Assembly: GCA_964454545.1 (NCBI GenBank)
Contig: CAYVTI010000003.1
Location: forward strand, 6,676 to 70,675
Length of the DNA: 64,000 nt
Direction of reading: 5' to 3'
Origin: an uncultured Rickettsiales bacterium
Lineage (GTDB): Bacteria; Pseudomonadota; Alphaproteobacteria; Rickettsiales; JABCZZ01
The notes beneath the pieces were generated by a model, which was not told the origin of the DNA, did no database searches, and saw only the letters and a list, made by a program, of their open reading frames with translations. Positions within the stretch are counted from its first letter, which is position 1, and each line of letters starts with the position of its first letter. Below are positions 87 to 61,551 of the stretch, one piece after another. The translations under genes and the position numbers were made by a program.

Positions 87-695
87 ATGTCTACATCCGT
101 TCTTCCCCCGCTCGTCGGGCTAGGGTTTGATGTCGTGCGCACGCTCCTGTGGGATACGGTCGTGCAGCAATCGCTCTCCGGTAAGGAGACACGTTTTGCG
201 CGCCAGACCTATCCGCGCTGGAAATGGGATCTTGCCTATAATGTGCTGCGCAGCGGCGCAAACTATACGGAATTGCAGCAACTAGCAGGGTTCTTCAATT
301 TACGGCAGGGGCAGTTCGATACATTTTTATATCAGGACGCCGACGATAACAGCGTGACGGGACAGCCCGTAGCTACAGGCGACGGCACGACGACGGGCTT
401 TCAGCTGATACGTTCTTTCGGCGGATTTGTTGAACCGGTGCTGGCTCCCAATACGGTAAGTGCGGTGTATATAAACGGCGTTGTGCAGACCAGCGGATTT
501 TCCATCAGCGCGTGGGGCAGCGCATCTCCGGGCGTGATTACGTTTGCGTCCGCCCCGGCGATCGGCGCTGCCGTCACTGTGGATTTCACCTATTATTTCC
601 CCGTGCGCATGAGCGCGGACAGCGTGTCGTTCAATATGTTTCTTTCCGGTTATTACAAGGCCAAGAAGTTTGGTTTTATTAGTGTAAAAAATTAA
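87..695 (+). CDS. Phage distal tail protein, DUF2460/TIGR02217-like (RcGTA g12 position)
   Basis: ATG at 87, 202 aa. N-terminus MSTSVLPPLVGLGFDVVRT and C-terminal YYFPVRMSADSVSF resemble the DUF2460 phage family. It directly precedes g13/g14/g15-like genes in the canonical order. Confidence 0.75.
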   Translation: MSTSVLPPLVGLGFDVVRTLLWDTVVQQSLSGKETRFARQTYPRWKWDLAYNVLRSGANYTELQQLAGFFNLRQGQFDTFLYQDADDNSVTGQPVATGDGTTTGFQLIRSFGGFVEPVLAPNTVSAVYINGVVQTSGFSISAWGSASPGVITFASAPAIGAAVTVDFTYYFPVRMSADSVSFNMFLSGYYKAKKFGFISVKN

Positions 696-750
696 TGAGC
701 AGAGTTGCGCAATCATCTTCACTCAGCTCTAACCACTCATCCCTCTCTTT

Positions 751-1629
751 ATGAAAACAGCATCCCCAGCCCTCATCAGCCTGCTCGCCTCAAGGCAGTT
801 TTTCTTCGCCGATCTGTACCAGTTCTCGCTGGCTGGAGGCGGGCAGCTCCATTATTGCGGCGGCGATAAGGATATCCTCTGGAACGGCGTCACATGGAGC
901 GCGGGCGGCGGCATGGGGCCGTATTTCGAACGCAAGGACAACAAGGCGAAATGCCACTGGAAAGTAGGCGTGGAAGTGGATACGCTGGTGTTCGACGTAT
1001 TGCCTGGTGCTTCCACCGTCATCGGCGAGCCGTTTTTACCGGCAGTCAGGCAGGGCGTGTTCGACGGCGCTGAATTGACACTCTATCGCGCTTTCATGCC
1101 CGCCTATGGCAATGTTGCCGCGGGAACGGTCATCATGTTCGCGGGCCGCGTTGCGGAAGTGGACGCCAGCGGTTCGCTCGCCACGTTCTCCGTGAACAGC
1201 CATCTTGAACTGCTCAACCAGAACCTGCCGCGCAACCTGTACCAGTCCGGCTGCGTGAACACGCTGTATGATTCCGCCTGCACGCTGAACCAGGCGAATT
1301 TCGCAGTGGCCGGCAGCGCTTCCGGCGGTTCCACCGCAAGCGTCATCAATACATTCTTGACTCAGGCGGCGGGATATTTTGACCTGGGAGTCATTACGTT
1401 TACCAGCGGCATAAATAATGGCGTTTCACGCACGGTGAAAAACTATGCCGGTGGATCGCCATCTGCTGTCAATCTCATTGCGCCGTTTCCTTCCGCACCC
1501 GGCTCCGGGGATGCATTCTCCATCGTACCGGGTTGCGACAAACAGCAATCCACCTGCAGGAATAAATTTTTCAACCTCGTTAATTTCCGCGGGTTTCCCT
1601 ATGTGCCGGAGAACAGCACGGCGGTGTAG
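751..1629 (+). CDS. Phage tail hub protein, DUF2163 plus BR0599-type C-terminal domain (RcGTA g13-like)
   Basis: 292 aa. N-terminus ALISLLASRQFFFADLY. C-terminus CDKQQSTCRNKFFNLVNFRGFPYVPE is typical of the BR0599 domain. Confidence 0.8.
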   Translation: MKTASPALISLLASRQFFFADLYQFSLAGGGQLHYCGGDKDILWNGVTWSAGGGMGPYFERKDNKAKCHWKVGVEVDTLVFDVLPGASTVIGEPFLPAVRQGVFDGAELTLYRAFMPAYGNVAAGTVIMFAGRVAEVDASGSLATFSVNSHLELLNQNLPRNLYQSGCVNTLYDSACTLNQANFAVAGSASGGSTASVINTFLTQAAGYFDLGVITFTSGINNGVSRTVKNYAGGSPSAVNLIAPFPSAPGSGDAFSIVPGCDKQQSTCRNKFFNLVNFRGFPYVPENSTAV

Positions 1630-1713
1630 CGCAATCTCTGTGCCATGCCTTGTTTTCGCTGTGGCCTGGCGAGATCTGAACTGAATGCAATGCAAACAAG
1701 AAAGGACCTTTTT

Positions 1714-1911
1714 ATGACCATCAGAGAAGACATCGCAAGAATCGAAGGGCTTGCTGAGAAGCTGAAGAATGAAATCGAGGTGTGGTTCGAACGGCATTTC
1801 GCAACGCTTGCTCATAATCCGAAACTGGAACAGGCGAAAGCCGATCTGCATGAAATGCTAGGCACGGAGGCAACTGCGCCTGATGCGGCGGCTTCTGCTT
1901 CCGCAGCCTGA
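1714..1911 (+). CDS. Small hypothetical protein (65 aa, helical, Ala-rich tail)
   Basis: ORF opens at 1645. ATG 1714 has AAAGGA 7-8 nt upstream, and ATG 1690 is an alternative start. The stop TGA at 1909-1911 abuts the next start at 1913. No recognisable family. Confidence 0.3.
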   Translation: MTIREDIARIEGLAEKLKNEIEVWFERHFATLAHNPKLEQAKADLHEMLGTEATAPDAAASASAA

Positions 1912-1912
1912 T

Positions 1913-2386
1913 ATGCAAGATACTGAACGTGCGCGGGTGGTGGCGGTTGCGCGTGAATGGCTCGGCACGCCGTATCACACCGGAGGCAGGGTGAAAGATG
2001 CGGGTGTTGACTGCCTGACATTGCTTGCCGAAGTGTTCCATGAAGCGGGACTGGTGGAAAAGATTGACATCCCTTATTATCCAAACGACTGGCACCTTCA
2101 CCGCGCCGCCGAGCGTTACCTTGACGGGTTGCTGCAATATACGCGTGAAATATCCGCGCCGCTTCCGGGTGATATTGCGCTCTGGAAATTCGGCCGTTGC
2201 TTCAGTCACGGCGCGATTGTTATTGAGTGGCCTATCATCATCCACGCTTATGTCGGGCGCGAATGCACGCTTGAGGATGCCTCAAAGGCGAAGTGGCTTA
2301 GCCATATTGGCGAAGATGCCGGAGAAAGCGCAAAACTGAGGCCAGTGCGTTTTTTCAGCGTATTTCTAACCCGTGGCCAGAGTTGA
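1913..2386 (+). CDS. Phage cell-wall peptidase, NlpC/P60 family (RcGTA g14-like)
   Basis: 157 aa from ATG 1913 (ORF opens at 1883). REWLGTPYHTGGRVKDAGVDCLTLLAEVF gives the catalytic Cys context, and FSHGAIV gives the His. Confidence 0.8.
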   Translation: MQDTERARVVAVAREWLGTPYHTGGRVKDAGVDCLTLLAEVFHEAGLVEKIDIPYYPNDWHLHRAAERYLDGLLQYTREISAPLPGDIALWKFGRCFSHGAIVIEWPIIIHAYVGRECTLEDASKAKWLSHIGEDAGESAKLRPVRFFSVFLTRGQS

Positions 2387-2442
2387 GAGTTTAGAGTAGA
2401 GAAAAACTTTTTACTCCACTCTCGCTACTCAACTCTCAATTC
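2376..2442 (+). promoter_or_regulatory. Long imperfect hairpin, copy 1 of a conserved intercistronic element
   Basis: Left arm CCAGAGTTGAG (2376-2386, includes the stop codon of the peptidase). Right arm TACTCAACTCTCAATTCT (2425-2442). The same words recur at 10841-10876. Confidence 0.5.
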
Positions 2443-2463
2443 TAACTTCTCATCACTCATTCT

Positions 2464-5400
2464 ATGTCCTTCCTCGTTGGCATTGCAAGAACGCCGCAGG
2501 CGGCGCAACAGGCGGCTGTGTCCGGCCTGCATCTGCAGAGCTCGGTCTACGGGAAAGCGCTTCCCATTGTTTACGGCACGACGCGCATCGCGCCCAACCT
2601 TATCTGGTATGGGGATTTTGTCGCCGCTCCCCAAAGCTCATCTTCGGGTGGCGGTGGCAAGGGCGGCGTTACCGGGGGCGGAGGCAAAGGTGGCGGCGCG
2701 TCGTCCTATATCTACCAGACGGCGGTGGCGCTGGGCTTGTGCGAAGGGCCGGTGCAAGGCGTAGGCAATGTCTATGTCAGCAAGTCGGTCACGACGATTG
2801 CCGCGCTCGGACTTTCAGAATTTCCGGGGAATTACGGCCAGGCGCCGTGGGGATACCTTGCAGCCAAACATCCGGATCAGGCCATCGGTTACAGCGGCGT
2901 TGCCTATCTTGCTGCAAGCAGCTACCCGCTTGGCAGTAACGCGGAGCTGCCCAACCATAATTTCGAGGTGCAGGGGATTTATTCCACTTCGCTCTCATCA
3001 CTCGGCGTTATCGACGCTGATCCGAGCCTCGTGGTCGCCGACCTGCTTACTAATCCCAACTATGGTGCGGGATTTCCACCGGTGCGGCTGGGAAGCCTTG
3101 GCGTCTATCAGTCATACTGCCTTGCGAACGGCCTCTGGATTTCGCCCGCCTATGTCACGCAGGCGCAGGCATCGTCAATGCTTGATGATCTTGCGAAGGC
3201 GACCAACAGCGCATTCGTCTGGTCGGGCGGAGTGCTGACGCTTGTGCCTTACGGCGATCAGAGCATTACTGCGAATGGATATGGTTACACTGCGCCTTCC
3301 GTGCCGCTTTACGATCTGACCGATGACGATTTCATGGAAAATAAAAATACGGTGGCAGGAGAAAAAAAGGATGCCATATGGCTTATGCGCAAGCGCCCAA
3401 GCGATGCGCTTAATTCGGTGAAGGTGGAATGCCTTGATCGCGCCAACTCCTATAACCCGGCGGTGATCGAGGCGAAGGATCAGGCGCTCATAGGGCAGTT
3501 CGGACTGCGCCAGTCCTCCTCCGCCCAGATGCACCTGTTCGCCGATATGAACGCCGCGCGCGTGTCGGCGCAGCTCCAGCTGCAGCGGCAATATATCCGT
3601 AATATCTACCAGTTTACGCTCGACCAGCGTTATGTGCTGCTCGATCCGATGGATATCGTGACATTGACTGATCCAGGGCTTGGCCTTAACAGGCAATGGG
3701 TGCGCATTACCGAAATCACCGAGAATGACGACGGATCGCTTTCTTTCACCGCCGAGGAATATCTTTCCGGCACCGGCAGCGCGCCGCTTTACAGCTATCA
3801 GTTGGGGCAGGGTTACGCCAATAATTACAATGCCAGCCCCGGCAATGCCAACGCGCCGGTGATTTTCGAGCCGACCGCGGAACTCGCCGAAAGCCTGGAG
3901 GTATGGCTTGCGGTAAGCGGCGGCGCGTTCTGGGGCGGGTGCGACGTCTATATTTCCAACGATGGCAACAGTTATAAACTGGCCGGACGCATCAACGGTT
4001 CGGCGCGTACCGGCGTGCTCACCGCAACGCTGCCTTCCACCACCGCGAATGGAACAGGGCAGACGATCGATGTCACGAATACGCTCTCGGTTGATTTATC
4101 GCAGAGCAACGCGCAATTGCTTTCCGGCTCTCAAAGCGACGCCGTGGCGCTCGCAACGCTTTGTTATGTCGATGGTGAATATATCGCCTACCAGAACGCA
4201 ACGCTCACCGGCAGCAACCGGTATAATCTGGGCTGGCTGGTGCGCGGCGCTTACGGCACGGGCGTTTCGCAGCACTTAAGCGGCAGCAGTTTCGCACGTC
4301 TCGACAGCGGCATCTTCAAATATGCGTTCCCGCAGAATTACATCGGCTCGACCATTTACATCAAGTTTGTTTCTTTCAACATCTATGATGGCGGCCTGCA
4401 GACGCTTGCCGAGGTGCAGCCTTATGCCTATATGATCAAGGGCACGGCGTTTTCCTCGCCACTGCCCACGCCGCAGAATTTGCGCACGTCCTACGTGGCG
4501 TCGCTCACCCAGCTCATGTGGGACGCGGTGCAGGATTTCCGCAGCGTCCAGTACGAAGTGCGCAAGGGCGCGGCATGGAACGGCGCGCAGGTGCTGGGGC
4601 GTACGATCTACCCGCCCTTTACCCTGCAAGGGGACGGCACATACTGGGTCTCGGCCTACAGCCAGCCGCTGGCAGGACTGCAGGTCTACAGCGAAACTCC
4701 GGCGAGCCTTGTCGTCTCAGGCTCGGTGATCACGAGCAACGTCATCGCAAGTTACGACGAACAGGCGACCGGCTGGAGCGGAACGCTCGGAGGCACGGCG
4801 GTGGTTGCGGGCAGCAACGTCATCACCACGGGCTCCGGCAATATCTTAAGCGACGCAGATTTCCTCGGCACGGGCAATGTCTTATTTTACGGCGGCGGTG
4901 GCAACGGCACCTATGAAATTCCCGGAGCGCACCAGATCGACATCAGCCGTGCAGCGCCCTGCCAGGTGCTCGTCACCTGGACATCGCAGGGCGTCAAGAT
5001 CACTGACAATATCCTTGCGGTGTATGATTATCTGGGCGACACGGATGTTCTTGACTGGGCGGCTTCGGCCAACACTAATGTCTATCCGGAAATCGCGCTG
5101 TCGCAGAATGGCACGACATGGTCAGCGTGGCAAAAATATGCCGCGGGTACTTACAACGCACTTAAATTCAAGGCGCGGATGCAGATTCAGGTGAACGATC
5201 CACAGGTGCAGGCGATACTCTCCGGCTTCGTGTTCTCGGTAGACGTGCCCGACCGCGACGATCATTATGTGAACAAAAGCATCGCTGCGGGTGGCACCAC
5301 GATCACTTTCATGCCGGACGGCTCCGCCACCGCGACGCCATTCAACGGCGGCCCGGCAGGCTCGCCAACGCAGCCTGCCATACAGGTTACGATTCTGAAT

Positions 5401-5520
5401 GCGCAGGCAGGCGACCTTGCGATCGTAAGCAGCGTGAGCCTTTCGAGCTGCACCGTGCAGATCCTGAACGGTGGTGCAGGGGTGGTAAGGAATGTGAATT
5501 TACTGGTGCAGGGGTATTAG
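2464..5520 (+). CDS. Host-specificity / central tail fibre protein (lambda gpJ-like, RcGTA g15-like)
   Basis: 1018 aa. N-terminus GLHLQSSVYGKALPIVYGTTRIAPNLIWYGDF followed by a Gly-rich linker (GGGGKGGVTGGGGKGGG), typical of Phage-tail_3 type proteins. It occupies the position after the g14-like gene. Confidence 0.8.
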   Translation: MSFLVGIARTPQAAQQAAVSGLHLQSSVYGKALPIVYGTTRIAPNLIWYGDFVAAPQSSSSGGGGKGGVTGGGGKGGGASSYIYQTAVALGLCEGPVQGVGNVYVSKSVTTIAALGLSEFPGNYGQAPWGYLAAKHPDQAIGYSGVAYLAASSYPLGSNAELPNHNFEVQGIYSTSLSSLGVIDADPSLVVADLLTNPNYGAGFPPVRLGSLGVYQSYCLANGLWISPAYVTQAQASSMLDDLAKATNSAFVWSGGVLTLVPYGDQSITANGYGYTAPSVPLYDLTDDDFMENKNTVAGEKKDAIWLMRKRPSDALNSVKVECLDRANSYNPAVIEAKDQALIGQFGLRQSSSAQMHLFADMNAARVSAQLQLQRQYIRNIYQFTLDQRYVLLDPMDIVTLTDPGLGLNRQWVRITEITENDDGSLSFTAEEYLSGTGSAPLYSYQLGQGYANNYNASPGNANAPVIFEPTAELAESLEVWLAVSGGAFWGGCDVYISNDGNSYKLAGRINGSARTGVLTATLPSTTANGTGQTIDVTNTLSVDLSQSNAQLLSGSQSDAVALATLCYVDGEYIAYQNATLTGSNRYNLGWLVRGAYGTGVSQHLSGSSFARLDSGIFKYAFPQNYIGSTIYIKFVSFNIYDGGLQTLAEVQPYAYMIKGTAFSSPLPTPQNLRTSYVASLTQLMWDAVQDFRSVQYEVRKGAAWNGAQVLGRTIYPPFTLQGDGTYWVSAYSQPLAGLQVYSETPASLVVSGSVITSNVIASYDEQATGWSGTLGGTAVVAGSNVITTGSGNILSDADFLGTGNVLFYGGGGNGTYEIPGAHQIDISRAAPCQVLVTWTSQGVKITDNILAVYDYLGDTDVLDWAASANTNVYPEIALSQNGTTWSAWQKYAAGTYNALKFKARMQIQVNDPQVQAILSGFVFSVDVPDRDDHYVNKSIAAGGTTITFMPDGSATATPFNGGPAGSPTQPAIQVTILNAQAGDLAIVSSVSLSSCTVQILNGGAGVVRNVNLLVQGY

Positions 5521-5687
5521 AATATTTTGTTCAAGGGACTTGAATCAAAATAGGCTATATGAGTGAATCGAAAAATCCGTATAGCGGCAACAGCAGGCAA
5601 TTGCCTTACCTAAAGACATGAAAGATCATGCACCTAGGTGGGGAATTGAAAGGTTTTAGAGAGTGTCATTTATCTGGCATCCATCTT

Positions 5688-5790
5688 TAATATATCACGC
5701 CAGACGGCGCTCTTGCTGGATGCCATATTACGCTGGCATGACAAGGAAAAACAAATACTTATTCCTTTCCTTATCCAAAACTGAGGTTAA
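5688..5790 (+). repeat. 103-nt intergenic repeat, copy 1
   Basis: By eye about three quarters identical to 50243-50345 over the same 103-nt length. The two copies share an exact 19-mer CGCCAGACGGCGCTCTTGC (5698-5716 = 50253-50271) and the terminal CTGAGGTTAA. Confidence 0.7.
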
Positions 5791-5828
5791 ACGAGAATTT
5801 TTTCTCGTTTGACCATCAACAAATAATC

Positions 5829-5955
5829 GCTCTCCTGCTCACCAGTAGTAATGCTGGTTTGTGGCTGGGGGGCGCAGTGCGTTTCCAGGGTTTTAGCCTG
5901 AAGATTATAGCGAAATCTTCAATGTTCGAGCTAATCCCCCTGCTATTCATTGATT
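5829..5955 (+). ncRNA. Candidate structured RNA element, copy C (homologous to 14251-14386)
   Basis: Hairpin CCAGTA-GTAA-TGCTGG (5842-5857). Outer stem GGCTGGGGGG (5863-5872) / TCCCCCTGCT (5935-5944). Shares the words TCCAG, AAGATTA, CAATGTTC and TTCATTG with copy A. The differences are compensatory or G-U only on the + strand. Confidence 0.35.
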
Positions 5956-6037
5956 CTTATCATTATTCATTATGAAACTTTTGTGTCACTTGTTTATTGC
6001 TGTTTTCATAAGCATGGCAATGGGTTAAAATGCCTAA

Positions 6038-7006
6038 GTGACACAATGGCCTGATATAGATCGCCGTCGTCTGGGCGCGATCAGCATTCTGCTTGGCAAT
6101 GCAGCGGTATTTGCCAATGGCCTCATTGCGAACCGGTTTGGCGAGGACCTGGACATGCGTAATGCTGGGGTGGGGCGCATGGCGTCGGCGGCGCTTACGA
6201 GTGGAGCCGGCCTGATTATCGGACGTTATGGTAGCTCACCGGTAGCCGCGCAGCTCGGGCGGCTTGAGAAGAAGCTTGCCGCTTTCATGAAACGGCACGG
6301 TATGCCGCTTGATGCGGAGCTGCTGAAGAAAGCGGATGAGGAAACCCGCAAGGGCTGGTTCTCTAAGCTTGAGGATTTCGCCTATGATCACCCTATGGAA
6401 TGCGGCAATATTTATAACGCGGTAGCAGCGCTCGGCATGCTGGGCAGCGGGTTTCTGCGCAGGCGGCGCGGCGAATTGCAGTCGGGCAATGCCAATATCA
6501 TCAACTATCTCATGATCCTTGCGGGAACGCTCTGGGGAAAAATGCAGGAAAAGCCGCTGAATTTCGCGGTCTGGCCGTTCCTTGGTGCGGACATATCCTT
6601 TGGCGGGCAGGCCTACGGCGAATATAAAACGGCAAAGCAATTACCGGAAAACAGCTCGCTGCGTCCGTGGATGTTCATCATGTCCGGCATTTCTGCCTTT
6701 ACAATGGTGGCTGCGGTCGTGGGCGATGTCCTGACTGGGTTCAGTTCCAAGAAAGTGGGTGGGAATCCCAAGGATCGCGAAGAGGCGCAGAACGAGCTCA
6801 TTGACAAGGCGGCGCGCATCCTTGCAAGCCAGCCCGTGGAAGTGCAGAGCCAGCTTGCAAAAGAAGCCGCAGAATACTTAAGCCAACAACAAGGATTGCG
6901 CATGGCGGATTTTGACGCCGATGCGCTGGTTTTACGTATCCTGCAGTCCATAGCGCGCCAGCAGGAACTTATCCAGAAAGAAACGCCCCGGCAGGGGCGT
7001 TTTTAA
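6038..7006 (+). CDS. Hypothetical multi-pass membrane protein (322 aa) with a helical, charged C-terminal tail
   Basis: GTG start at 6038. It has several hydrophobic segments (LGAISILLGNAAVFANGLIA, INYLMILAGTLWG, WMFIMSGISAFTMVAAVVGDVL). No family recognised. It lies in an AT-rich cargo island. Confidence 0.5.
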   Translation: MTQWPDIDRRRLGAISILLGNAAVFANGLIANRFGEDLDMRNAGVGRMASAALTSGAGLIIGRYGSSPVAAQLGRLEKKLAAFMKRHGMPLDAELLKKADEETRKGWFSKLEDFAYDHPMECGNIYNAVAALGMLGSGFLRRRRGELQSGNANIINYLMILAGTLWGKMQEKPLNFAVWPFLGADISFGGQAYGEYKTAKQLPENSSLRPWMFIMSGISAFTMVAAVVGDVLTGFSSKKVGGNPKDREEAQNELIDKAARILASQPVEVQSQLAKEAAEYLSQQQGLRMADFDADALVLRILQSIARQQELIQKETPRQGRF

Positions 7007-7085
7007 AGTGTTAACAGTAACCAAATATTAACTATTATCTGATATATTTCTCTCTGTGCCGTATGGGGAATCTTCAGATAGTTTT

Positions 7086-7448
7086 ATGATTATAAAATAT
7101 AAATCACTAATATCCTGCCTTGTGCTCGTTTCAGCTTCTGCCGCGGTTGCAGAGGATAACCTCATCTATATAAGCCAGGCGGGCAATCATAATATGGCCA
7201 GCGTTGCACAGTCGGGAAACAACAACTTCTATGACATATTGCTCACCGGGCAAAATGATGCAGCGAATGTTTCCCAGGGCGGCTCTTATAATACCGCGAA
7301 CCTAACGCAGAGCGGGATAAGCGATCAGATAAAACTGATCCAAAGCGGCAGTAATGATTTTGCTTCCATTACCCAGACCGGGCGTTTCGACGTTGCGGTG
7401 GTTAGCCAGATAGGGAATGGAAATCACGTCAGTATAATTCAGCATTAG
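7086..7448 (+). CDS. Secreted curlin-repeat (CsgA/CsgB-like) protein, orphan
   Basis: Signal peptide MIIKYKSLISCLVLVSASAAVA, then about five S-Q-x-G-x-x-N-x-A-x-V-x-Q-x-G type repeats (ISQAGNHNMASVAQSG, NVSQGGSYNTANLTQSG, LIQSGSNDFASITQTG, VVSQIGNGNHVSIIQH). The ORF opens at 7056. Confidence 0.6.
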   Translation: MIIKYKSLISCLVLVSASAAVAEDNLIYISQAGNHNMASVAQSGNNNFYDILLTGQNDAANVSQGGSYNTANLTQSGISDQIKLIQSGSNDFASITQTGRFDVAVVSQIGNGNHVSIIQH

Positions 7449-7562
7449 AGAGCGTTCTTGATTTAAGTGACTACAAAAACGCTCCCGTTCTTTAATGGCG
7501 CTCAAGCGCCGCGCAGGCTGCGCTCCCCTCTTGGCCGCCAGCCGCAGCTAAAGCTCCTCCCC

Positions 7563-7599
7563 GCATGTTCGTTTTTGTCTGCGACTAAAACGAACATGC
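7563..7599. other. Perfect 13-bp inverted repeat (GCATGTTCGTTTT / AAAACGAACATGC) with an 11-nt loop
   Basis: Read directly from the sequence. It lies downstream of the curlin-repeat gene. No adjacent T-run, so it is not a classical intrinsic terminator. Confidence 0.5.
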
Positions 7600-7699
7600 T
7601 CTAAATCTTAAAAATCGGGAATACGGGAAATCAGGAATTCCCGCCTATTCTCCATTGCCGGCTTCCTGACTTCCCAATTTCAACCTCAAAGGAATCCTT

Positions 7700-11383: not shown

Positions 11384-11456
11384 GGAAATATTAAGATTTG
11401 ACTACAAGCCTATTCCCAAGTTGCCGGATTTCCGATTTTCCGGTATTATCAGCCGG

Positions 11457-12386
11457 ATGAAGCAGGCTGAATCGAATGAGGCGCGTAAGGAAAGGCTGTT
11501 GCATACGCTCTATGCCCTGCGGGGGCATTTCCGGGAGAGCGCCCCTGCGGATCCGGAGGATCTGACGCTCGGCCAGAAGGATGCGGAAGGGGTGATACTC
11601 CATTGCATTGATTCGCGCCTTAACGAGCGCAAGGATTTACATCTCGCCCGCGGGGAGTATTTCCAGACGGCGTCCGCAGGCGCGGCCGTGCCGCCTTATG
11701 ACGGGCAACGGGTGAGTCTTGAGCACCAGGTGGATCTGGGCTATCCGGCGCTGCATTTTCCCAAGGTGCGCAACATCGTCATCATGGGGCATACGCATTG
11801 CGGCGCGAACAAGGCGCTTTACGACGCGCTGCTCGGCGACGCGAAGCCTTCTGACGGTTTTGAAGCGGGCTGGATGCTGCCGGTTGCGCCGGAAGGGTTG
11901 AGCGCGGCGCTCAAGAAAGCAAAAAGCGCGGGCGTGGATGAGCAGGAGCAGTTGCGTATCGTGGAGCAGCTCAGCGTCCTGCAGTCCATGAAACATTTAT
12001 ATGATTACTATTTCAACGATAAGTCCGTGCGTGACAATGTCGGCAACGGCAGCCTGCATGTGATAGGCGCGATCCGGGATATCCATGCGGATGCGGAAGG
12101 CAAATTCCCGCTGTTGGTCTATGATTCAGGCAGGAATGCATTCCGCAAAATCGAGGAGCTTTATGATGAGGTTTTTCCGGATACAGGCAAACGAACGGCA
12201 GAAAATATAGAAAACGCAGCGAAGCCTTTGCTTGAGCAGCAGAAAAAGATGCTTGTGCCTGCGGCGCACATGGTGGTGCAGAAAGGCGCGGAGAGCAGCA
12301 CGGTGGCGGAGATGGAAATCAGCCAGATTCAGGATGGCGTCAGAAAGCTGCTGGATAAGGTGAATAAGGCGGGAGTATCACGATGA
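11457..12386 (+). CDS. Beta-class carbonic anhydrase-like protein with a long C-terminal extension
   Basis: 309 aa from ATG 11457. The 422-aa ORF opening at 11118 overlaps the previous gene. Zinc-ligand motifs CIDSR and GHTHCGA are present, with beta-CA-like blocks ARGEYFQTASAGAAV and GSLHVIGAIRDI. There is an extra tail of about 90 aa. Confidence 0.7.
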   Translation: MKQAESNEARKERLLHTLYALRGHFRESAPADPEDLTLGQKDAEGVILHCIDSRLNERKDLHLARGEYFQTASAGAAVPPYDGQRVSLEHQVDLGYPALHFPKVRNIVIMGHTHCGANKALYDALLGDAKPSDGFEAGWMLPVAPEGLSAALKKAKSAGVDEQEQLRIVEQLSVLQSMKHLYDYYFNDKSVRDNVGNGSLHVIGAIRDIHADAEGKFPLLVYDSGRNAFRKIEELYDEVFPDTGKRTAENIENAAKPLLEQQKKMLVPAAHMVVQKGAESSTVAEMEISQIQDGVRKLLDKVNKAGVSR

Positions 12387-12625
12387 AGGAAGCGCTCGAT
12401 AAAAATAAGTACGTGCTGGAACGCGTAACCGGAAAAGATGTAAACGGGAAACCAGTATTTGCTTACGTGCTCCTGCGTAAAAAACGCCTGGCGGATTTTC
12501 GCAGGGAGATGGGCAGGCGCGATGTTGACCTCGCTGAGTTCGGCGTCATTGTCGCCTATGGCAGCGGTACGAATCCACCTGCCGATTTCGAACAGCATGT
12601 TCTGGAGGCTGTAAGAAAGCTGTAA
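12383..12625 (+). CDS. 80-aa hypothetical protein, paralogue of 18120-18362
   Basis: ATGA overlap with the upstream gene (12383-12386). Shares GKD..GKP...YVL..K..L..F....D..E.G.....G.G.NPP with the other copy. Confidence 0.55.
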   Translation: MKEALDKNKYVLERVTGKDVNGKPVFAYVLLRKKRLADFRREMGRRDVDLAEFGVIVAYGSGTNPPADFEQHVLEAVRKL

Positions 12626-12636
12626 ATTCGCTTTTT

Positions 12637-13206
12637 CTATCTCTGCGGGATATTGTCCACCATCTTCTGCAGCCTGGCGACCCGCTCCTGGTAGGTAAGT
12701 TTCCTGCGTTCTGCGCTTTCTTCCGGTTTCAGGCCATGCCTTTCCAGAATGCGGGCGAAGGTTTTATTGTCGAATATCATCTTAAGTTCATCACTGTGTT
12801 CCTCGGCAACCGCCGTGTATTTGCTGAGGGCGTAAGCCACAGGAATCACCATAGAGGATGCAGCCGTTATATCTTTCTGCACATCCGGGGAAACATCACC
12901 CTGCTGCAGCATTCGGCTGAAGGGCGAAGCGGCGGATTGAAGCTTTAGCGAATCCAGGGAGATCTGGTTGAGGTCCGGTAGCCTGACAGGGTCGATGCCG
13001 TTTTCTCCCTGAGAAAGCGCCACATGCAGCTTTTCAAGTCCCGGAACGCTGATGTTATGGCCGCGCGCCATATCCAGTATTCTGCCCAGTCTTTCCGCAG
13101 ACACTCTCAGCGCTTCCTCGCTGGTGGTTACGGTGGCATCGCTTCCCTGATAATGATCGAGCAGGGATTTCGCCAGAATGTCACGAAACGCTACAGCATC
13201 GGCCAT
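12637..13206 (-). CDS. Hypothetical protein (189 aa), N-terminus MADAV
   Basis: ATG with GAGGAA SD and an uninterrupted ORF. No family recognised. Convergent with the 80-aa gene. Confidence 0.5.
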   Translation of the reverse strand: MADAVAFRDILAKSLLDHYQGSDATVTTSEEALRVSAERLGRILDMARGHNISVPGLEKLHVALSQGENGIDPVRLPDLNQISLDSLKLQSAASPFSRMLQQGDVSPDVQKDITAASSMVIPVAYALSKYTAVAEEHSDELKMIFDNKTFARILERHGLKPEESAERRKLTYQERVARLQKMVDNIPQR

Positions 13207-13331
13207 ATAAAAGTTCCTCAGGACGGAATCATTTTAGCATAGTGACGGCAAAAGGCATGTTAAAAGTTTATGACACCATTCCTTAATGTGTGGAGCCGCG
13301 AAATTTCCAGGTAAAAAGATACTTGCTATCG

Positions 13332-13922
13332 TTAGCGGGACTTCCCTGTTATTCTTAATGACTGTTTGCCTGTGTCTCCCGGCAACGGTATTTCAGGCAG
13401 TTGAGCAGAAGGTGGAGACCTCCCTGCATTTATGTTTGCCTCATACTCACGGACAGCGCTCTCTATAGGAGGAGGTTTCCTTTCCGGAGCAGAATTGTTT
13501 GTCAATTGCATCAAAAGAGACGAAGTTCTTACCAATTCTGGATCTCTGATGATGGGGGAAGATTTTGATTTTATAAGAGAAGAAGCAAATTTATGAATTG
13601 CTTCTGCTTCTTTTGCGAGCGTTTCATTAGAAGGGATTTTATCAACAGATATTTCCTGTTCTTTCTCTACTGTGGCGCTAGGTAATGCAGCGCTAAGCAA
13701 TGCATGGAGTTTTCTCAAATCAGGTACATCGGGTGGTACATCGGCTTCGTTGTATACCTCATCTCTTCTTGGGTATGCTTCATCTATTCTTTTAAGTACC
13801 TCTCCTAATATTGAGGAAGTGAATTTCAGGGGGGCGTCTGGTTTGGGATTTCCAGACGTTAGGTAAAATACGGCCAGCCGCCTGCGCAGTATCGAATTAA
13901 AGTCTTCCATTCTGTTAGCCAT
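13332..13922 (-). CDS. Hypothetical protein (196 aa), Pro/Ser-rich, in an AT-rich region
   Basis: ORF 13332-14015. ATG 13922 (MANRMEDFN..) is preferred because GAGAG lies 8 nt upstream. No family recognised. Confidence 0.4.
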   Translation of the reverse strand: MANRMEDFNSILRRRLAVFYLTSGNPKPDAPLKFTSSILGEVLKRIDEAYPRRDEVYNEADVPPDVPDLRKLHALLSAALPSATVEKEQEISVDKIPSNETLAKEAEAIHKFASSLIKSKSSPIIRDPELVRTSSLLMQLTNNSAPERKPPPIESAVREYEANINAGRSPPSAQLPEIPLPGDTGKQSLRITGKSR

Positions 13923-14059
13923 AAAATTGCTCTCAAGTACTCTCAAGCGAATTATCTGAAACGATTTTACCATGATAATGGTAAAGGAAATATTAAGAAT
14001 TTTGTTAAATTTCAAACTGAGACACTACCAGCCAAATCATAAGCTTGACCTAACCTTCG

Positions 14060-14386
14060 AATTTTACTATAACTTCCCCCGCAGGCGCGAAGCGTCTGTG
14101 GGAAGTTCGAAGCTCTCATCTGTGTGTCGTTAGCGGTTTGTGTACCGTTATTCTCACTCCCTTGCCCATGCTGGGCGGGGAGGGATCAGTTATACAACAG
14201 GCTTCGGCCGAAGGCTGATTCCAACCTTTCTAGCGACAGGTTGCTTCGAACTCTCCCGCTCACCCAGCAGCAATGCTGGCTTATGGCAGGGGAGACCGTA
14301 ATGCATGTCCAGAGGCGCTGCAATCGCCTTAAAGATTACGGTAGAACCTCAAATGTTCAGATGGCTCCCCTGCCGCTTTTCATTTG
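14060..14386 (+). ncRNA. Candidate structured RNA element, copy A
   Basis: Nested hairpin 14071-14107 (AACTTCCC..CAGGCGC-GAA-GCGTCTG..GGGAAGTT). Core TATACAACAGGCTTCGG at 14191-14207. Hairpin CCAGCA-GCAA-TGCTGG at 14264-14279. Perfect 10-bp outer stem GGCAGGGGAG / CTCCCCTGCC (14285-14294 / 14365-14374) enclosing ACCGTAAT / ATTACGGT and AGGCG / CGCCT stems, followed by GCTTTTCATTT. Confidence 0.4.
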
Positions 14387-14491
14387 CCAGTCCACTTGTC
14401 ATGCCCGCGCAGGCGCATCTTAACATACTAAAGAGCTAAAATTCCCGCTTTCGCAGGAATGACAATTATTACCCGGATATCAGAATATCAT

Positions 14492-16369
14492 ATGACGACC
14501 GAACAATTCTCCAACCTGGCGCAGACGACGCTCGCCAGCACCGTTAGCGCGGGCGCGACTTCGCTTATCGTGGCATCCGCCTCCGGATTTCCTGCGGGCG
14601 GGCAATTCCGCATCGTCATCGATCAGGAAATATTCCTGGTGACGGCGGTTTCCGGCGTTACTTTTACCGTGACTCCGGGGTATGAGGGCACGATGCAGGC
14701 CGCTCATGCGGGCGGCGCTGCGGTGGCGCACATTCTTACTGCCGGGGTGATCTCGCAGATATACAATAACGCGCTTAATTTCGCCACGCCGCGTATTCAG
14801 GCATTCGGCGATTCGCGTGCTTCCTACTGTGGCCTTAACGTCAACCAGTCGAGTTCGACGTTTGCCAACCCGGCGATGGAATATCCAAACCGCTCGCCGG
14901 TTGCCTGGGCTAACCGCTTCCTGCGCGGGCGGCTCAACTTCGATCTGACGCTTGGCTATATCGGCCAGTTTCAGGCGGTGTGCAGCGTGAAAGTGGTGAA
15001 TGGCGGCTCCAATTACACGTCGCCTTCGGTGTCATTTTCCGGCAGCGGCACAGGGCTTACCTTTGGCGCTCCGGTAGTATCGGGCGGGGTCATCAAAAGC
15101 GTGCCGGTGACGGCGCAAGGCATCAATTTTACCTCGCTGCCCACGTTGAGCGTGAGCGACTCCACCGGATCAGGCGCGGTATTGCAGGCCGTTATCGGCG
15201 GCACGGGAACATTCGGCGTCGCCGGGGAGACTACGATGCAGTGCGTCAACCGCCTGTCCGATATCGCTTCGGTGGCGGCGGATATCGTGTTTGTCTGCAT
15301 AGGCACTAATGACATTACCAACGGCGTTTCCGCGGCAACTACAAAGGCCAACCTGCAGACGATATTCGATACGTTAATTGCAGCGGGGAAGATGGTCGTC
15401 TATTGTCCGGATCAGGCGCGCAGCTACTGGGCATCGCTTACCGGCAGCCAAATCACCAACGCCCGCCACCAGATGTATAATGTGAAGCGCTGGGCATACC
15501 AGTACGCATTGCTTGCGAACGGCAAGAACCCGAACGGCAACAGGAAAATCATTATCTGCGACGCGGAGGATTTCTGGGCGGATGCGACAAGCAGCACTGG
15601 CAATCCGCTTTCGCTCATGACCTCCGATGGCCTGCACTGGTCGACCGCGAGCGCGCAGGCGATGGGGCTGAGACTTGCGCAGCAATTGCAGCCGCTGCTG
15701 GGACTCTCGGGGCCTGCCATGATCATAAGCCAGGTGGATGGGTACGATGCGACCTATAATCCCGATGGCGCGCTCAATTTCGGCTGGCTGATGAATGCCA
15801 CTCCCGGCACGCCTACAGCACCGGTTACCGGAAGCATCGCCGGAAATTTCAGCGCATTCCGCAGCTCCGGCTCGGCGACCGGCACGATGGCGGGTTCCAT
15901 CGAATCGGTACGCACGGACGGCTTAAGCGGCAACCGGCAGGTGTTCACGTTTTCACTCGGCAGCGGCACGAGCAGCGAGCAATATAATTTCGGCATCACG
16001 AGCAGCGCGATTTCATCCTATAATATCAGCGTTGGCGATACGATCAGCGTCGAATGCGACATGTGGCTTTCGGGGCAGGCGAACGTGAACCGCCTGCTGC
16101 TGCAAATCAACTTCACCCAAAGCGGCACGACGGCTATGCAGGCGATGGACGGCGACAATGTCACCGATAAATTCATCGCCTCCGGCGCGTATATGGCGAT
16201 TGCCGGGGATACAAATCCGATGACTTTCCGCACGCCGCCGGTCATTGTTCCCTCCGGCGCCGATCATTTGACCTGCTATGCTATCATTGGTTTTGACGCA
16301 AGCGGCGGCGCAGGCTCAGCGACCGCTACATGGAAGATCGGGAATTTCAGGATAAGAAAAGTGGTGTAG
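14492..16369 (+). CDS. Tail fibre / tail spike with an SGNH (GDSL) esterase domain
   Basis: 625 aa from ATG 14492 (ORF opens at 14459). Fibre-type N-terminus MTTEQFSNLAQTTLASTVSAGATSLIV. SGNH blocks AFGDSRAS, VCIGTNDI and SDGLHWS. Confidence 0.7.
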   Translation: MTTEQFSNLAQTTLASTVSAGATSLIVASASGFPAGGQFRIVIDQEIFLVTAVSGVTFTVTPGYEGTMQAAHAGGAAVAHILTAGVISQIYNNALNFATPRIQAFGDSRASYCGLNVNQSSSTFANPAMEYPNRSPVAWANRFLRGRLNFDLTLGYIGQFQAVCSVKVVNGGSNYTSPSVSFSGSGTGLTFGAPVVSGGVIKSVPVTAQGINFTSLPTLSVSDSTGSGAVLQAVIGGTGTFGVAGETTMQCVNRLSDIASVAADIVFVCIGTNDITNGVSAATTKANLQTIFDTLIAAGKMVVYCPDQARSYWASLTGSQITNARHQMYNVKRWAYQYALLANGKNPNGNRKIIICDAEDFWADATSSTGNPLSLMTSDGLHWSTASAQAMGLRLAQQLQPLLGLSGPAMIISQVDGYDATYNPDGALNFGWLMNATPGTPTAPVTGSIAGNFSAFRSSGSATGTMAGSIESVRTDGLSGNRQVFTFSLGSGTSSEQYNFGITSSAISSYNISVGDTISVECDMWLSGQANVNRLLLQINFTQSGTTAMQAMDGDNVTDKFIASGAYMAIAGDTNPMTFRTPPVIVPSGADHLTCYAIIGFDASGGAGSATATWKIGNFRIRKVV

Positions 16370-50242: not shown

Positions 50243-50345
50243 TAATATACCGCGCCAGACGGCGCTCTTGCCGGATGCCAGCTTGCGCTAAAATAAATAG
50301 TAAAAGCAAATACCTATTCATTCAATTGTCCAGAACTGAGGTTAA
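50243..50345 (+). repeat. 103-nt intergenic repeat, copy 2
   Basis: Homologous to 5688-5790, including the exact 19-mer at 50253-50271. It lies in the 530-bp gap between the asparaginase-like gene and the pel operon start. Confidence 0.7.
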
Positions 50346-61229: not shown

Positions 61230-61236
61230 TCCCGTG

Positions 61237-61430
61237 AGGTTAAGAGATTAACCTTGGGTCTTCAAAAGCCCGCGATGAACGGTAAATGGCATCAACCGTA
61301 AAATGATACCGTCCCCGATTTTGTCGGGTCGACGGCGCATATACAACAGGCTTCGGTCGAAAACGCCGTGGCTGTTTCATCGCAGCTTTTTGAACGACCC
61401 GATACCACCGGATTTTCCGGTGGTTTCCTT
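61237..61430 (+). ncRNA. Candidate cis-regulatory leader RNA (copy B of the TATACAACAGGCTTCGG core)
   Basis: Hairpin AGGTTAA-GAGA-TTAACCT at 61237-61254. TCGGG (61324-61328) can pair with either CCCGA (61314-61318) or, as TCGGGTCG, with CGACCCGA (61395-61402). Core 17-mer at 61340-61356. Terminator-like ACCACCGG-ATTTT-CCGGTGGT at 61404-61424 followed by TTCCTT. Confidence 0.3.
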
Positions 61431-61455: not shown

Positions 61456-61551
61456 ATGAAAGACTGTCTCTGCCTTATAGGCATTATCGTCATGCCGATA
61501 CTCGGACTGGTCACGGGCATCATTATCGGGTATGTCGCGTTTGCGCACTAA
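61456..61551 (+). CDS. 31-aa hydrophobic peptide (MKDCLCLIGIIVMPILGLVTGIIIGYVAFAH)
   Basis: GGGAG SD 7 nt upstream of the ATG. Single predicted TM helix. It lies downstream of the structured leader. Below the ORF-track size cutoff as an ATG-initiated ORF. Confidence 0.3.
   Translation: MKDCLCLIGIIVMPILGLVTGIIIGYVAFAH

Follow-up and report, generated by a model that had tools for sequence, protein, structure and literature searches.

A prophage carries a member, and a partial duplicate, of an uncatalogued alphaproteobacterial RNA family distantly related to sRNA-Xcc1

Results

The prophage and its variable slots

The DNA studied here is a stretch of 64,000 nucleotides (nt; the window) from an uncultured Rickettsiales bacterium. 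It contains a prophage with a non-coding element at 14060-14386, called here copy A, a second version of which, copy B, lies at 5830-5955. The original prediction, made by reading the sequence, was that of a structured RNA present in two copies in the prophage. We found that the flagged stretch is a real structured RNA that belongs to an uncatalogued alphaproteobacterial family, distantly related to sRNA-Xcc1, and that the prophage carries one member of this family together with a partial duplicate of it, and not a phage-specific repeat.

The tail module of the prophage, at window positions 87-5520, is RcGTA-like (DUF2460, phiJL001 Gp84 N-domain/BR0599, NlpC/P60, and Phage-tail_3 with Rcc01698_C), and the whole could be a prophage, related to gene transfer agents, of an alphaproteobacterium. 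The prophage ends near 19 kb, where it adjoins genes for Peptidase_M50, NagZ and ArgRS, and the same flank was found in a relative (L122; L-numbers denote the fetched loci). In syntenic prophages, which were found through the SGNH protein, the homology of the backbone stops at 11387 and resumes at 14479, and the element of copy A is absent from them, so that copy A is cargo in a variable slot. Between the equivalents of these two positions the syntenic prophages carry other genes, often toxin-antitoxin pairs. Copy B lies in a second variable slot, after the tail host-specificity gene; the two slots span 5521-7699 and 11388-14478. Annotation of the cargo proteins with Pfam, PHROGs and NCBIfam showed no link between them and this RNA. 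Since the SGNH homologues have 625 amino acids (aa) and the backbone resumes at 14479, the SGNH gene probably starts at ATG 14492, and the mechanical call at 14459 is probably wrong.

An RNA family with members inside and outside the prophage

A 17-mer of copy A, TATACAACAGGCTTCGG, which forms the AUACAA/GAA internal loop and the apical hairpin of helix P2, occurs for a third time at 61340, where a 22-mer around the P2 motif also recurs in blastn searches within the window. It marks there a full element (61234-61409) that the original prediction had missed. In all, 19 sequences of around 175 nt were collected from alphaproteobacterial genomes and metagenomes, for the most part by exact-pattern scans on the P2 motif. 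A 16-mer scan of genome contigs gave at least five true relatives, from alphaproteobacterial metagenome-assembled genomes, among the matches listed, which were mostly due to chance, and pattern scans of metagenomes gave 11 more. In viral contigs the 16-mer and a degenerate version of it matched coding or chance sequence only, and longer P2 patterns and a pattern for the 3' module described below were without match. A blastn search with 14040-14460 against phages, E. coli genomes and plasmids gave no match either.

A covariance model of 175 positions and 54 pairs, called R1, was built from nine sequences of subtype I, the group to which copy A belongs. Over the fetched loci it recovered 19 members, including an extra copy in L152, and in the window it gave exactly two matches, the core of copy A and the element at 61 kb (Table 1), the score of copy A being inflated because it is part of the seed. 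The 61-kb copy and 9 other matches were outside the seed. Copy B was not detected by R1, which means that it lacks the core and that the prophage has the core only once. Members from other genomes lie in the chromosome, as in L152, where an ATP synthase operon precedes them. Thus, the structured RNA of the + strand stood, on the covariance model, the covariation and the excess of G·U pairs (see below), while its description as a two-copy phage element did not: the family is mostly chromosomal and has its own conserved promoter, and its second full member in the window lies outside the prophage.

The two copies of L152 (116-290 and 2097-2275, both on the - strand) are 2 kb apart downstream of the ATP synthase operon, and each of them precedes an open reading frame (ORF) for a small exported protein. 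The distal one has a variant P2 loop (AUGCAAU...CUCCGG), so that the apparently invariant 16-mer is in part an artefact of the search pattern. In L119 a family RNA (2504-2685, - strand) lies directly upstream of a reverse-transcriptase ORF with an LGNQTSQ motif like those of diversity-generating retroelements.

Covariation of two mutually exclusive folds

The + strand of 14060-14400 folds with -137 kcal/mol (z = -5.4 versus shuffled sequences), compared with z = -2.5 for the - strand. When sequences were folded independently, 17 of 17 minimum free energy (MFE) structures showed one nested architecture (Fold B), a four-way junction with the 5' hairpin H0 and a closing helix, formed by Pa (GGGG/CCCC), Pb and Pc, around a multiloop that holds H2, H3 (arms CUCCUCGAC / GUCGGGGAG) and P2. 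H0, at 14078-14102, corresponds to a nested hairpin that had been proposed at 14071-14107, and it covaries in the family. In an alignment that was fitted to Fold B and not to the alternative Fold A, 86.2% of the cells are paired in Fold B and 38 of its 54 pairs show double changes; the covariation score was 0.499, versus 0.205 for shuffled alignments (0 of 500 reached it) and 0.08-0.14 with slid partners.

Fold A is a three-way junction of the sRNA-Xcc1 type, P1/P2/P3, with a local hairpin H1. Its P1 pairs GGUCGGGGAG with CUCCCCGAUC, is 98.4% paired and shows double changes in 5 of 10 pairs, whereas P3 shows them in 4 of 4; in copy A, 36 of the 41 pairs of Fold A are standard. P1 uses the same nucleotides as H3 and Pa, so that both folds are mutually exclusive, and because pairs 157/231 and 158/230 are unpaired in Fold B, their covariation is no by-product of it. 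These data support that evolution kept both folds. In the full-length RNA, Fold B is favoured by 6-23 kcal/mol, with -82.2 kcal/mol for the nested fold of copy A versus -64.1 when P1 is forced. The MFE versus forced-P1 comparison was the only one used; energies of Fold B forced by alignment columns cannot be trusted where a sequence is out of register with the others. A pseudoknot, in which P1 and the closing helix would coexist, was rejected by its geometry, since the 3' strand of P1 comes 1 nt after that of Pb and yet would span around 14 bp.

Regarding the strand, G·U cells are 129 and A·C cells 34, which identifies the + strand as the RNA, and both this excess and the folding z values agree with the strand originally proposed. 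That proposal had relied on compensatory changes between copies A and B, which, with two sequences and four double-change pairs in the 3' module, are weak evidence. Strong covariation was detected for the helices of Fold B and Fold A in the core, the part that had been treated as accessory.

Promoter and start of the transcript

A sigma-70-type promoter is predicted upstream of the core of copy A (Table 1), with a transcription start at around 14079-14081. Almost all of 18 family members carry a TTGAC(C/T/A)-16/17-TAnnnT box that ends about 5 nt upstream of where the model begins. The consensus scanner missed the promoter of copy A, as it needs a T at position 6 of the -10 box, where copy A has a C. 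As the conserved promoter is around 95 nt upstream of P1, the primary transcript is predicted to be longer than 88 nt.

The 3' module shared by copies A and B

After the core, positions 14251-14386 are homologous to 5830-5955, with 77% column identity in a MAFFT alignment. Within the 64-kb window, blastn detected this pair as a high-scoring segment of 62 nt with 77% identity (E = 3e-6), and no comparable other match. The alignment, blastn and direct reading confirmed the homology and the hairpins that had been described for both stretches. The small hairpins CCAGCA-GCAA-TGCTGG (copy A) and CCAGTA-GTAA-TGCTGG (copy B) read exactly as claimed, and their loops are GNRA in both window copies; this does not hold for the relatives, in which GUAAA, GUUU or UUUUU loops or terminator hairpins are found. 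The 10-bp outer stem is also real, at corrected coordinates, with one double change of A-U to G-C, two changes of G-C to G-U and one mismatch. In the RNAalifold consensus of both copies 26 pairs are kept, 4 of them with changes on both sides.

Copy B begins at the 3' strand of the closing helix, in such a way that the core of around 170 nt is absent. The first 30 nt of the module are the tail of the family element, that is, the 3' strand of P1/Pa (the C4 box; boxes are numbered 5' to 3'), ACC, and a hairpin as in L151 and L079. The small hairpin of copy A is homologous in position and sequence to CGCCAGCAGUAAAUGCUGGCG of L151 and CGCCAGCGUUUGCUGGCG of L079, and in subtypes II and III a true terminator hairpin takes its place.

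The small hairpin is followed in both copies by a long hairpin, in which the G5 and C6 boxes form the outer stem and are separated by around 70 nt; these include an apical hairpin that in one copy is 7 nt longer than in the other. After the GC-rich 10-bp base comes GCUUUUCAUUU in copy A, while the sequence at this place in copy B, AUUCAUUGAUUCUU, is poorer. In copy A, G5 is also complementary over 10 bp to the C2 box in the 5' arm of H3 (E = -20.4 kcal/mol, p < 0.003 versus shuffles), so that C6 is in effect a duplicate of C2. G5 resembles a Shine-Dalgarno (SD) sequence, and a start codon is aligned after it in both copies, as GGGGAG-6-AUG in copy A and GGGGGG-4-GUG in copy B. The ORFs that follow have 40 and 32 aa, respectively, and are out of frame with each other through indels of 7 and 1 nt. 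Searches with the ORFs across the element found no homologue among 5.8 billion proteins and no Pfam match. Coding hypotheses were rejected on these grounds and on the frame-breaking indels, and the element remains non-coding, as proposed. The module alone folds with z = -3.6 versus shuffled sequences in copy A, and only -1.9 in copy B.

A conserved leader of the 322-aa gene that follows copy B was considered too, and rejected because the homologues of this gene lack the module upstream. With no further copies of the module, homologues of the next gene that lack it and ORFs that are out of frame, the module is best read as the expression platform or terminator of the element, and copy B as a 5'-truncated duplicate of the tail of copy A.

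Table 1. Features of copy A, copy B and the chromosomal family member, in window coordinates
Feature	Position	Strand	Remarks
Predicted sigma-70-type promoter, copy A	14045-14073	+	TTGACC (14045-14050), 17-nt spacer, TATAAC (14068-14073)
Core structured RNA, copy A	14079-14267	+	R1 102.9 bits, E = 6e-22 (inflated, sequence in seed)
H0, 5' terminal hairpin	14078-14102	+	MFE; 8 of 8 pairs with double changes in the family
Closing helix Pa/Pb	14100-14113 with 14243-14257	+	
Pc	14125-14133 with 14230-14238	+	
H2	about 14132-14149	+	
H3	14157-14182	+	
C2 box, CUCC-type 5' arm of H3	14157-14166	+	CUCCCUUGCC in copy A
P2	about 14183-14222	+	AUACAA/GAA internal loop and CUUCGG loop
Alternative P1	14173-14181 with 14252-14261	+	
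Small hairpin after core, copy A	14264-14279	+	CCAGCA-GCAA-UGCUGG; in copy B with C-G to U-G change
Long hairpin and tail, copy A	14285-14388	+	MFE, two-sequence consensus
Outer stem, copy A	14285-14294 / 14365-14374	+	Corrected coordinates
G5 box, 5' arm of long hairpin, copy A	14285-14294	+	GGCAGGGGAG; SD-like, 6 nt before AUG 14301
C6 box, 3' arm of long hairpin, copy A	14365-14374	+	CUCCCCUGCC; pairs with G5
U-rich tail, copy A	after C6, within 14285-14388	+	GCUUUUCAUUUGCC
Copy B, 5'-truncated partial copy	5830-5955	+	Alignment
C4 box, copy B	5830-5840	+	CUCUCCUGCUC; CUCC-type 3' strand of closing helix/P1
Small hairpin, copy B	5842-5857	+	
Long hairpin (outer stem), copy B	5863-5872 / 5935-5944	+	Corrected coordinates; U-rich tail follows
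Full family member, subtype II	61234-61409	+	R1 51.1 bits, E = 6e-10; chromosome

The chromosomal member and the genes downstream of the family

The member at 61 kb has a promoter of its own, TTGACC-16-TATGCT, and is followed by a canonical terminator hairpin at around 61403-61425, by a conserved AUCGGGAG box and by a hydrophobic ORF of 31 aa (61456-61551). The product of this ORF, MKDCLCLIGIIVMPILGLVTGIIIGYVAFAH, resembles a type I toxin, and an analogous hydrophobic ORF of 43 aa is found in L042.

The ORF immediately downstream codes, in 14 of 18 members, for a small protein that carries a signal peptide, a lipobox or a membrane segment, the exceptions being L068, L093, L119 (reverse transcriptase) and copy A, which has only a short unconserved ORF. 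The products include outer-membrane proteins, lipoproteins, a PLD-type nuclease, small hydrophobic peptides and the reverse transcriptase. The ORF starts at most around 50 nt downstream in every member except copy A. In subtype I, copy A included, an SD sequence and a start codon follow the core at 11-45 nt, with no terminator between.

Relation to sRNA-Xcc1 and to other known RNAs

No Rfam family was found at the gathering thresholds in the window or in 15 relatives, in line with the failure of the original prediction to match the element to a known RNA; below threshold, sRNA-Xcc1 appeared. This RNA is 88 nt long and occurs in integron cassettes of Xanthomonas, in transposons, on plasmids and in many phages. 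Its model (RF02221) matches copy A at 14173-14269, a stretch that includes the 17-mer, with 30.5 bits (E = 0.0024), and the 61-kb member at 61323-61411 with 40.9 bits (E = 1.7e-5). In 10 family members, these two among them, it was matched full length (model positions 1-87).

Common to both RNAs are the three-way junction P1/P2/P3, with helices alike in order and size, the P2 internal loop AUACAA...GAA, a (C)ACC tail that follows P1, an association with mobile DNA and an ORF downstream on the same strand. The family differs, however, in its scores of 30-46 bits, which are under the gathering score of 53, in a conserved promoter around 95 nt upstream of P1, and in a 5' extension (H0, H1, H2, C2) that refolds the RNA into the dominant covarying four-way junction, the similarity within the family reaching around 95 nt upstream of the Rfam model. 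Its hosts differ as well, being environmental Alphaproteobacteria.

sRNA-Xcc1 was detected as an 88-nt RNA with its 5' end at P1 (PMC2996969). The ORF that follows it is symE in the cassettes of Xanthomonas (bioRxiv 10.1101/2025.06.18.660453), an ORF6N gene in APSE (PMC7313666) and ant in Aaphi23. True sRNA-Xcc1-like sequences are common in phages, with a match in 56 phage records, and in Stx phages they are near regulatory genes. In Aaphi23 (L161) such a sequence lies at 1801-1882, between a Q-like antiterminator gene and ant/holin, and in the Stx phage P13374 (L160) at 1801-1866, under a mis-called 48-aa "antB2" coding sequence.

The c4 RNA of phages P1 and P7 is released from a longer transcript by RNase P, which cleaves where helix P1 of c4 begins, and this phage-borne RNA controls the translation of the next ORF by occluding its ribosome-binding site (RBS) (PMC5320573). 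In a Xylella prophage c4, IsrK and sRNA-Xcc1 are found side by side (PMC12189769). The likeness of the family to c4, and also to c4-like, IsrK and A. baumannii Group 1 RNAs, resides in a three-stem RNA in the leader of a controlled operon and in a longer precursor with upstream sequences that pair with the RNA. The sequence RCCA, a known determinant for RNase P (PMC12710915), follows P1 as ACCA or GCCA in 14 of 19 members, copy A having ACCC. In contrast to c4, the RCCA of the family is often base-paired, lying within the next hairpin, and an RNase P or tRNA-like reading of it is a weak idea. No match to the Rfam models C4 (RF01695), c4-2 and c4-a1b1 was found at E <= 10 in 13950-14500. A pairing of loop and RBS as in c4 was rejected, as the P2-apical and P3 loops paired with the downstream 90 nt no better than shuffles did (mean z around 0), with p <= 0.05 in 1 of 18 and 0 of 18 members.

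Riboswitch and attenuator leaders, and hok, also conserve alternative helices that share one strand and show long-range 5'-3' pairing, and a terminator or an SD-sequestering element follows a sensor-like domain, as it does here depending on the subtype. By contrast, the family has no known ligand or trigger, its downstream genes are functionally heterogeneous, with only export or membrane location in common, and the switching strands, P1 included, lie outside the terminators of subtype II. With the anti-SD small RNAs (sRNAs) of Alphaproteobacteria (alpha-r14/NfeR1; the CcsR "cuckoo" RNAs with CCUCCUCCC loops) the family shares C-rich anti-SD motifs (CACUCCUC, CUCCCC), the host group and the presence of several copies per genome; its C boxes, however, are in helices and not in hairpin loops, its architecture is another, and no Rfam match was found.

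Other features of the cargo slots

The cargo of the two slots includes a 322-aa protein without known function (6038-7006), a curlin-repeat protein (7056-7448), a carbonic-anhydrase-like ORF and two minus-strand ORFs, also without known function. Homologues of the 322-aa protein adjoin tRNA genes (around 2700-2790 in L155 and 2840-2915 in L157), which suggests an island-borne accessory gene. In L120 and L124 the endolysin-SGNH interval contains toxin-antitoxin pairs of the PemK/MazE, PIN/RHH or PIN/Phd types. A non-coding direct repeat of about 103 nt, with 80% identity, was found at 5688-5790, immediately upstream of copy B, and at 50243-50345 in the chromosome; its sequence, TAATATAyCrCGCCAGACGGCGCTCTTGCyGGATGCCA...AACTGAGGTTAA, has no Rfam match.

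Discussion

The explanation that we favour, with a probability of around 0.5, is that copy A is a self-contained transcription unit for a non-coding structured RNA, carried as cargo by the prophage, which would work as a bistable cis-acting leader or riboregulator. Its structure is well supported; its function we infer as follows. From the promoter at 14045-14073, an RNA would be transcribed from around 14080 to around 14385, as a moron in the variable slot. The switch would consist in an exchange of strands among GGGGAG-like (G) and CUCCCC-like (C) boxes, in such a way that C4 would pair either with G1, the 5' strand of Pa, in Fold B, or with G3, which together with C2 forms the arms of H3, to give P1 in Fold A. 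Acting in cis as a leader, the RNA would control access to the downstream G box according to which C box, that is, which anti-SD sequence, is free. In the relatives this downstream G box would be the SD of the ORF for a small secreted, membrane or lipoprotein. In copy A, G5 would be locked with C6 in the long hairpin, and this hairpin, followed by the U-rich tail, probably ends the transcript at around 300 nt and would thereby keep transcription in the lysogen from reaching the late SGNH fibre gene. Copy B would be a 5'-truncated remnant of the tail (C4, small hairpin, G5:C6), or a re-used copy of it, in which the core cannot form. This model is based on the layout of the downstream ORFs, on the enrichment of G boxes and on the SD-like box and start codon that are aligned in copies A and B. 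Among the roles originally offered for the element, an sRNA and a cis-acting element are kept, antitermination found no support, and a mobile structured element is unlikely, given that the helices covary instead of being conserved in sequence.

Several observations weigh against such a leader. There is an enrichment of G boxes that lie downstream and can pair with C2 or C4 (p <= 0.05 in 8 and 7 of 18 members, respectively, with a mean z of around -1.4), but any SD pairs with CUCC, so that the SD/anti-SD enrichment is partly trivial in subtype I. The ORFs after the SD-like boxes of copies A and B are mutually out of frame and without homologues, which leaves copy A without an evident gene under its control. 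A strong terminator stands between the RNA and the ORF in subtypes II and III, an arrangement that fits a free-standing sRNA equally well. The family was gathered with a pattern for the P2 loop, and the conservation of this loop is therefore inflated. A profile search with the 3' module over all the fetched loci found copies A and B of the window only; the long hairpin and its tail are thus known from two sequences of one genome, and it is 4 compensatory pairs that support their structure. As a terminator the long hairpin does not look canonical, and a terminator scanner that considers loops of 3-8 nt only called none in 13800-14600 or 5500-6100. Finally, the promoter, the 3' end and the switch of copy A are predictions.

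The closest competitor, which we regard as possible though doubtful, is a free-standing trans-acting sRNA with its own promoter, ended by the hairpin and U tract, that would serve as a lysogenic-conversion factor by pairing with host or phage mRNAs; sRNA-Xcc1 is reported to be such a trans-acting sRNA. In subtypes II and III the core runs directly into a canonical terminator, which speaks for it, but subtype I, which includes the closest relatives of copy A, has no terminator before the next ORF. Such an sRNA may be processed to a three-way-junction form of around 90 nt, which would explain why both folds are conserved, and the independent covariation of Fold A pairs, the 88-nt form of sRNA-Xcc1 with its 5' end at P1 (PMC2996969), the excision of c4 by RNase P at the same place (PMC5320573), the ACCA or GCCA after P1, which recalls RNase P substrates such as c4, and the abundance of sRNA-Xcc1-like sequences in phages, beside Q and ant, are all consistent with it. 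On the other hand, the following hairpin often takes up the RCCA in its stem, no target is known, and neither a complementarity of the P2/P3 loops to the downstream translation start nor a match to Rfam C4 was detected. Rather less probable is that the shared 3' module is itself the unit relevant for the phage, as a late-operon terminator, an insulator, or a processing or mRNA-stabilising site at the junctions between cargo and next gene. It is the only sequence common to both prophage loci, both copies lie around 85-105 nt upstream of the next + strand gene in variable cargo slots, and the outer stem and apical hairpin have survived 23% divergence and an indel of 7 nt. However, only two sequences of it exist, that of copy B folds barely better than shuffled ones, the scanner called no terminator, and the module is absent from all related prophages and from the loci with homologues of the gene after copy B; moreover, as its first 30 nt clearly are the tail of the family element, a partial duplication suffices to explain the similarity of both copies.

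A repeat at the level of DNA, either a MITE-like mobile element or a recombination scar with its palindromes as terminal inverted repeats, would account for the unrelated genomic contexts, for the two copies 2 kb apart in L152, for a closing helix that resembles such repeats and for a copy B that looks like a truncation product. Repeats bound by a transposase would be conserved in sequence, whereas here the helix sequences vary while pairing is kept (at one Pc pair, AU:5 GC:5 CG:1 UA:1), the asymmetry of G·U over A·C is strand-specific and the promoter is conserved; no transposase or target-site duplication was seen, the latter not having been searched systematically, and we judge this origin very improbable. 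Least credible of all is a decayed or unrecognised gene for a small protein, be it the ORF at 14124-14423 or those of 40 and 32 aa after the SD-like boxes. In its favour, the SD-like box and start codon are aligned and no stop codon interrupts either frame before or within the 3' arm of the hairpin, but the protein and Pfam searches were negative, 15 codons in the middle are read in different frames owing to the indels of 7 and 1 nt, and the 7-nt indel alters the length of the hairpin in a way that preserves the structure and not the frame.

Coming back to the bistable leader, a wider and more tentative proposal is that the whole family (copy A, the 61-kb copy and 17 relatives) constitutes a new class of bistable cis-regulatory RNA, riboswitch-like or activated by processing, that would control small envelope-protein genes across Alphaproteobacteria. 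The three-way junction would then be the sensing or active state and the 5' extension a built-in anti-structure, with control exerted at translation or termination. If this were true, sRNA-Xcc1 would be a minimal form of the same device.

Annotations of sRNA-Xcc1 exist for hundreds of genomes, phages, integron cassettes and genomic islands. The promoter, the 5' extension, the two covarying exclusive folds and the adjoining ORFs described here offer a testable model for this whole group, either as a switch embedded in a leader or as a precursor of a mature RNA. For annotation, the family is a candidate for a new Rfam entry or for an extension of the RF02221 seed, and it illustrates that a "two-copy" repeat can be a partial duplication of the tail of an element. 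For the biology of phages, it would be a case of a prophage that captured a riboregulatory cassette of host type in a moron slot beside its fibre gene.

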